64,000 bases of DNA from Octopus vulgaris (taxonomy: Eukaryota), in the NCBI GenBank assembly GCA_951406725.2, contig OX597821.1:5332001-5396000 (forward strand). The letters run 5' to 3'. Shown in pieces: positions 22,547 through 23,152 of this stretch. The position numbers were made by a program, and so were the translations under genes. The first letter of the stretch is position 1. Each line of letters starts with the position of its first letter. A model generated the notes under the pieces. That model saw only the letters and a program-made list of their open reading frames with translations. It searched no databases and was not told the DNA's origin.

Positions 22547-23152
22547 ATCAATATAGGGTGGCAAAAAAAATTTTGTAGAATTTGTTTGCCACCAGCGGCC
22601 TAGTGGGAAAAAATTAAATAGCCATAGACCATTTATAAGTTCAACATCACAATCAAGGAACGGCCATAATAGGCCATTCACCCACTAGAAATAACAGCCA
22701 AAGCTTCAACCGCAAAATAACATTAATTCCGCAAACCAGGAGAAAATTAAAAAACATTTACCCTGTAATTTCTTATACGATGCACCGTTTCATCTACTGT
22801 TTAATGGTAAACTAACCTGATTAAATTAAATCAAGCCAATCTTCCATAGGCCCTTAGATTCGTCAGTAAGAAATAGCCAGAACGGAACAGATATTTTCAC
22901 GAGGCATTTCTGTCCCTGCCTCGGCAATATCTGACCTAAAATTTTCAAATCATCGCACTCGCGCCAATTTAATTTAATCAGGTTAGTTTACCATTAAACA
23001 GTAGATGAAACGGTGCATCGTATAAGAAATTACAGGGTAAATGTTTTTTAATTTTCTCCTGGTTTGCGGAATTAATGTTATTTTGCGGTTGAAGCTTTGG
23101 CTGTTATTTCTAGTGGGTGAATGGCCTATTATGGCCGTTCCTTGATTGTGAT
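22544..23152. mobile_element. Second, diverged locus of the 490-bp retrozyme-like family (partial minus copy plus inverted partial plus copy)
   Basis: Clear homology to 5070-7502; inversion junction at ~22967; (TA)n flanks. Confidence 0.85.
22768..22874 (-). ncRNA. Type I hammerhead ribozyme variant (CUGACGA core, GUA site)
   Basis: Minus strand: ATTTCTTA CTGACGA ATCTA...TAGAT GAAA CGGTGCATCG TA TAAGAAAT. Confidence 0.88.

Follow-up and report, generated by a model that had tools for sequence, protein, structure and literature searches.

The 64-kb window analyzed here, i.e., the whole 64,000-nucleotide stretch of Octopus vulgaris DNA, carries two insertions of the same repeat family, and the second of these, which interrupts a Penelope-like element at its internal AT tract, includes a predicted type I hammerhead ribozyme on the minus strand. 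The features of the two insertions and of the host element are as follows (window coordinates):

21955..23682: Penelope-like copy hosting the second insertion, young and truncated, with its inverted arm at 21955-22215 and its direct arm at 22213-22434 and 23171-23682
22541..22973, minus strand: second insertion, long arm, spanning 433 bases of the unit, its 3' end at fixed site B and joined to (AT)n
22967..23152, plus strand: inverted short arm of the second insertion, 186 bases, its 3' end at fixed site A and joined to (AT)n
22874-22768, minus strand: predicted type I hammerhead (based on sequence, folds and pair counts over 126 insertions)
22874-22867 with 22775-22768, minus strand: stem I, ATTTCTTA with TAAGAAAT
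22866-22860 and 22791-22788, minus strand: core, CUGACGA and GAAA
22862, minus strand: core position N7, variable; the base is C here and U in the first array, and each of the four is found across the family
22776, minus strand: H17, at the cleavage site, A in this copy and C in the first array; predicted cleavage follows this GUA
22792..22859, minus strand: stem II, ATCTA paired with TAGAT; the 58-nt insert between them is structured and has an inner helix of 14 bp (folds, pair counts)
22777..22788, minus strand: stem III, ACGGUGCAUCGU, self-complementary (fold energies)
22888..22933, minus strand: upstream hairpin with the GAGGCA and loop changes, outside the ribozyme (folds, pair counts)
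5070..7502: first array, with five complete CUGAUGA/GUC hammerheads on inverted arms at 5070-6097 (minus strand) and 6090-7502 (plus strand)

The short arm of the second insertion contains only the 3' half of the ribozyme and matches the long arm at 100% over their overlap, and the arms of the first array also terminate in (AT)n at these two fixed sites. Sequence identities point to the second insertion being very recent, because the end of its Penelope-like host is 100% identical at 35 listed places (its own locus counted) and the ribozyme region has exact matches on four other contigs. The insertion holds one whole hammerhead and therefore cannot release a unit; that is, it is a truncated dead end, and selection, where it acted, acted on its ancestors. 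Rfam hammerhead models gave no match at the gathering score in the 64-kb window, and no hammerhead family matched at E<=10 in 22500-23200, a miss that is likely due to the long insert of stem II. The CTGANGA motif alone is not above chance in the window either (33 occurrences vs. 24 +/- 5.6 expected).

Two further observations concern the surroundings of the insertion. The end of the host element has a hammerhead-like motif near 23520-23570 (plus strand), with a CUGAUGC core plus an extra G instead of CUGAUGA in 40 of the 42 segments counted, and other copies of this host element hold RT and C-terminal GIY-YIG fragments. At 24120-24200 and 4700-4830, the window has short fragments of tRNA-like repeats that are probably SINEs, as judged by eye only.

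The repeat unit, its subfamilies and the predicted fold

The family is a young non-coding repeat with a 491-base unit that contains one predicted type I hammerhead, and more than 2,000 copies are present in the 2.8-Gb genome. The retrozyme features found are a tandem arrangement of units that each contain a type I hammerhead motif, a low GC content, and dispersed copies. No reading frame of at least 130 aa occurs in the first array, and one frame of 135 aa touches the end of the second insertion, running through the AT tract. Genome-wide, three patterns with the core left as wildcards had 980, 952 and 799 matches, with the invariant core bases intact in 100, 100 and 99, respectively, of the first 100 matches listed, and a non-ribozyme pattern had 4486 matches. 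Similarly, C3-A6, G8 and A9 are intact in 2244 of 2258 units, and of the 2681 units scored at position 17, 1686 have A, 992 C, three U and none G; all these genome-wide patterns require exact flanks, which biases the counts towards young copies. For comparative analysis, we sampled 142 insertions from a larger, uncounted total, the majority of them on the two largest contigs. The tree is built from the 126 insertions in which the ribozyme and no fewer than 300 bases are present (the other 16 failed this threshold and were excluded), and a less biased subset consists of the 90 insertions retrieved with patterns that had wildcards or lay outside the core.

Clustering at 1.5% distance yielded five clusters with six or more insertions (40, 34, 30, 7 and 6), i.e., at least five subfamilies, rather than the two active ones that the original prediction had read from the two loci. 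Activity remains a reasonable reading for the subfamilies, with near-identical copies as its basis, but does not extend to the truncated copy of the second insertion itself. Insertions of different subfamilies can also be found close together, such as two within about 700 bases of each other on one of the contigs (L163 with L108, C1:195864500).

Compared with the first array, the second insertion shows 29 differences over 433 bases, and the interval 22768-22960 holds 16 alignment differences, eight of which had been named by the original prediction. The changes CTGATGA to CTGACGA (N7, 22862), GTC to GTA (H17, 22776), GAGGTA to GAGGCA (22918) and GCAATGAGAA to GGGACAGAAA in the loop (22908-22916) are indeed all present on the minus strand. 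In the hammerhead numbering used here, N7 is the core position that tolerates any base. The cleavage triplet follows the NUH rule (passages of PMC3884650), and the change from GUC to GUA is real, but GUA is the majority state in the family and not a departure from it. The remaining part of the comparison, in which the U-G to C-G change and the rewritten loop had been listed among the differences sparing ribozyme function, has no bearing on catalysis, for the hairpin concerned (22933-22888) lies 5' of stem I and outside the hammerhead. The pairing argument is also contradicted by pair losses, with only 86% of cells paired in the poorly conserved upper stem and three of the eight pairs broken across whole subfamilies; an unnamed A to C difference at 22924 disrupts an A-U pair of the same hairpin. 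Lying outside stem I and with its upper stem broken in whole subfamilies, the GAGGCA hairpin was ruled out as a stem II or a second ribozyme. Its 3' side (22888-22906, minus strand) is conserved, partly even in the sister family described below, and its 5' side is variable; the conserved side may be a sequence signal, e.g., a promoter element.

The predicted hammerhead itself has its core enclosed by three helices, stem I being the open one, and shows compensatory changes. Across the 126 insertions, 99.8% of the cells are paired in stem I, 95.2% in stem II and 99.6% in stem III, and folds place internal loops in both stems I and II. The fifth pair of stem II differs by subfamily (A-U in 65, G-C in 38 and A.A in 23 insertions); the subfamily of the first array is without it, and in the second insertion it is provided by another unnamed difference, A to T at 22796. 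A competing ATCTA/TAGAT hairpin in the first array was considered and is not adopted in the computed folds. Pair 10.1-11.1, beside the core, is broken in a few of the 126 insertions (A.C in four, U.U in two). The centre of the stem III palindrome is GC in 92 insertions and AT in 32, a compensatory change, and the energy of stem III is -0.2 kcal/mol as a hairpin vs. -17.5 kcal/mol as a two-molecule duplex, the latter pairing being the dimer arrangement described in passages of PMC4209133.

A sister family, with a 474-base unit that is 73% identical and at least 218 units, keeps all 11 core bases with stem II rewritten and stem III made of perfect palindromes. Its core is intact in 97 of the first 100 matches listed, of 218, and its pair 10.1-11.1 is A.A. 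MAFFT displaced the sister core by three columns, and its core identity was therefore read directly from the sequences. The two-arm, AT-flanked anatomy is also seen in the sister family at one locus (L301, 289-901).

Insertion anatomy and the copied template

The arrangement of the second insertion is the common one in the family. Among the 140 insertions uncut at the edges of the retrieved segments, 103 have two inverted arms, and 94 of these pair an end A with an end B (two A ends occur in one insertion, two B ends in none). One arm of these 94 ends ~128-137 bases and the other ~233-245 bases after the cleavage site, that is, at two fixed 3' ends, about 105 bases apart, within (AT)n. Single-armed insertions end at site A or B in 35 of 36 cases, and 195 of 206 flanks are AT-rich. 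Only three of 248 5' breakpoints fall at the cleavage site, with no pile-up there, and the template was therefore uncut or rejoined at that site; 12 breakpoints at position 1 were dismissed as a reference-edge artefact.

Taken together with the selected core (next section), copying through the cut site is accounted for most simply by a ligated circle, for which the support is partial. In such a model, tandem transcripts would self-cleave, probably aided by pairing of two palindromic stem III segments, and the released unit would probably be ligated into a circle. A Penelope-like endonuclease would then nick both strands of an AT tract, and the Penelope-like RT would start at two internal sites and proceed past the cleavage junction, in many cases for several rounds, before the two cDNAs join head to head; the copies, once inserted, would mutate regardless of the core. 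For an anole Penelope-like element, too, it has been shown that RT starts at two internal sites and that both of the AT-rich strands are nicked (passages of PMC11167929). The strongest form of this model, in which the circle released by hammerhead cleavage is the obligatory Penelope template, primed twice at fixed sites with both AT-tract strands nicked and copied in a rolling fashion, is one that we put forward tentatively, at somewhat below even odds.

The distribution of private variants within arrays bears on this directly. There are 128 insertion-private alleles, of which eight are fixed in all units of both arms, 95 occur in one unit, and 25 occur in some units (10 of the 25 come from one stretch holding two elements), and these 25 partly shared alleles are unexpected from a single monomer circle. 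They are, together with patterns repeated within arrays (e.g., units 4 and 8 of one), what one would expect if the ribozyme were selected only to free or end-process a linear transcript, with uncut linear multimers being copied, arrays growing by local duplication and no circle involved; unprocessed RNA is also the dominant substrate for the anole element in passages of PMC11167929. We consider this linear route unlikely, however, since 5' truncation in each round should shorten arrays, and yet the longest near-identical arrays have arms of 2.6 and 3.6 kb, more than one extra full unit is present on both arms in 16 of the 94 A/B insertions, and the eight fixed alleles span both arms. As a separate observation, some long arrays repeat private variants every several units (L125, C5:74569500; L124, C2:163410500), which could reflect multimeric templates or local duplication.

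Concerning the source of the enzymes, elements with intact RT and GIY-YIG domains are present in the genome. No homology of the unit to coding Penelope ends was detected in 46 GIY-YIG loci (30 of the 150 scored matches as short loci and 16 long stretches; 6136 candidates), and no unit-end homology in 30 host-element loci; that is, compared with Penelope-like elements, the octopus unit shows no sequence link to a coding element's end among the 76 loci examined. The lone exception near the GIY-YIG loci is a small retrozyme fragment inserted 1.1 kb from one match. A young, intact Penelope-like family (L256:2745-5087, L257-L267) has a 781-codon RT plus GIY-YIG frame in many copies and AT-tract ends; it is a candidate helper, without detected similarity to the unit.

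Inherited and private changes at the catalytic core

When only the two copies of the window are compared, the probability that the 11 invariant core bases are untouched by the 29 differences is 0.47 and the probability that both core changes fall on N7 and H17 is 1/78; such a comparison alone is only suggestive of selection. The family provides a stronger test. Parsimony on the tree of 126 insertions gave 359 inherited changes, with zero at the 11 invariant core bases, seven at N7 and one at H17. The probability that 11 random other sites are all unchanged is 0.0035 (0.008 for the 90-insertion subset), and core invariance relative to predicted unpaired sites gave P=0.0007. The original proposal that selection spares the catalytic core is, hence, supported by the invariant positions relative to N7, with the single change at H17 adding little. 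Only five of 478 other sites change at least as often as N7, which takes all four bases. In one clade, the N7 changes are flanked by markers of that clade at distances of ~14 and ~7 bases, a spacing that speaks against long conversion tracts.

It is important to note that about 60% of the non-core sites are also without change on the tree, and core invariance alone is therefore moderate evidence; that is, most of the unit is young or constrained. Further, changes carried by a minority of the units of an array hit the core four times vs. 4.9 expected (new alleles) or 7.5 expected (all minority alleles); single-copy or private mutations show no significant sparing of the core and occur there at about the background rate. 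No sequencing run listed for the repeat is catalogued as RNA, and contigs from runs presumed to be RNA give no information on strand, ends or circles. A variant table from such contigs lists none of the 11 core bases, but N7 and H17 are absent from it too, and it was set aside as evidence. The change at H17 may have gone in either direction: GUC is nested within GUA under both rootings, but the sister family carries GUC. The outgroup root is weak (support 25).

Hence, we favor the hypothesis, with a probability of roughly 0.75, that the second insertion is a truncated copy of a young, protein-free hammerhead family, the catalytic bases of which are avoided by inherited changes most likely because only self-cutting RNAs get copied. 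In other words, self-cutting is likely needed for spread. A different possibility is that the hammerhead is conserved for its fold, which would serve the helper RT as a structural or protein-binding element, with cleavage being incidental or very slow. The anole hammerhead, which cleaves only with its protein (passages of PMC11167929), the poor in vitro cleavage of Penelope hammerheads (passages of PMC4209133) and the degenerate 10.1-11.1 pair of the family would all fit, but tolerance exactly at N7 and of non-G bases at position 17 corresponds to catalytic rules and not to a generic fold, which makes this explanation improbable in our view. Finally, that the pattern arose by chance and from N7 being prone to mutation or conversion, in a family of young age and without selection on catalysis, seems very improbable: although few sites have changed, other invariant stretches of like length exist in the unit and the seven N7 changes stand against a mean of 1.0 for unpaired sites, N7 shows no within-array excess (one event in 249 cells, from the two-element stretch, with low power), its changes include transversions, G8 is G in 72 of 72 units having a CpG at N7-G8, G17 is absent among the 2681 units, compensatory pairs occur next to the core, and the sister family, at 73% identity, has retained it (P about 0.03). 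N7, which changes far more than other unpaired bases, might tune the cleavage rate between competing subfamilies.

Relation to known hammerhead elements

Based on features that can be tested in the sequence, the element is classed as a non-LTR retrozyme with a Penelope-type footprint. Like the metazoan non-LTR retrozymes in the compared passages of PMC7229834 and 10.64898/2026.07.22.740005, it has dispersed, tandem, low-GC, non-coding units with one type I hammerhead each, several subfamilies, and co-occurring Penelope-like elements. The 491-nt unit is longer than the 170-400 nt RNAs in the former passages but inside the 51-972 bp range of the latter. Unlike in metazoan retrozymes, stem II of the octopus hammerhead has the 58-nt insert that Rfam misses, and an arrangement of two inverted arms that end at fixed sites in (AT)n is undescribed in the passages compared. 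In addition, circles and cleavage have been demonstrated for the retrozymes of coral, mussel and axolotl (Cervera and de la Pena 2020, passages of PMC7229834), whereas the octopus family is known here from its genomic copies; cleavage of Xenopus retrozyme dimers was seen in only 1/9 (passages of 10.64898/2026.07.22.740005). A Penelope origin of animal non-LTR retrozymes was argued from Xenopus in the same 2026 preprint (Li, Clavereau and Pollet, in the passages compared).

The likeness to Penelope-like insertions and to the hammerheads of Penelope pLTRs is in the inverted 5'-truncated arm, the tail between two fixed ends and the microsatellite targets (passages of PMC8557442 and PMC11167929), as well as in the palindromic stem III suited to dimers (passages of PMC4209133). 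Relative to the Penelope-like insertions of these passages, the octopus unit is without an ORF, its tail is ~105 nt as opposed to 30-40, and its arms can be multi-unit. A search of the literature on hammerhead ribozymes and retrotransposons in octopus or cephalopods, which mostly covered papers outside subscription, returned no such family. The class of element is already known, and the octopus family represents a new example of it.

As for the role of hammerheads in Penelope-like elements and animal retrozymes, ribozyme mutants still inserted in the only purified system (passages of PMC11167929); specifically, insertion of the anole element in vitro was unaffected by hammerhead mutations, and no reads ended at the cut site. 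If the circle is indeed the template, this would be an essential function for a Penelope-associated hammerhead that went undetected in the one in vitro system. The family described here represents genomic evidence for selection on catalytic bases in lineages that keep spreading, and it supplies natural variants, i.e., four N7 states, two cleavage triplets and two stem III palindromes, plus candidate helper proteins.
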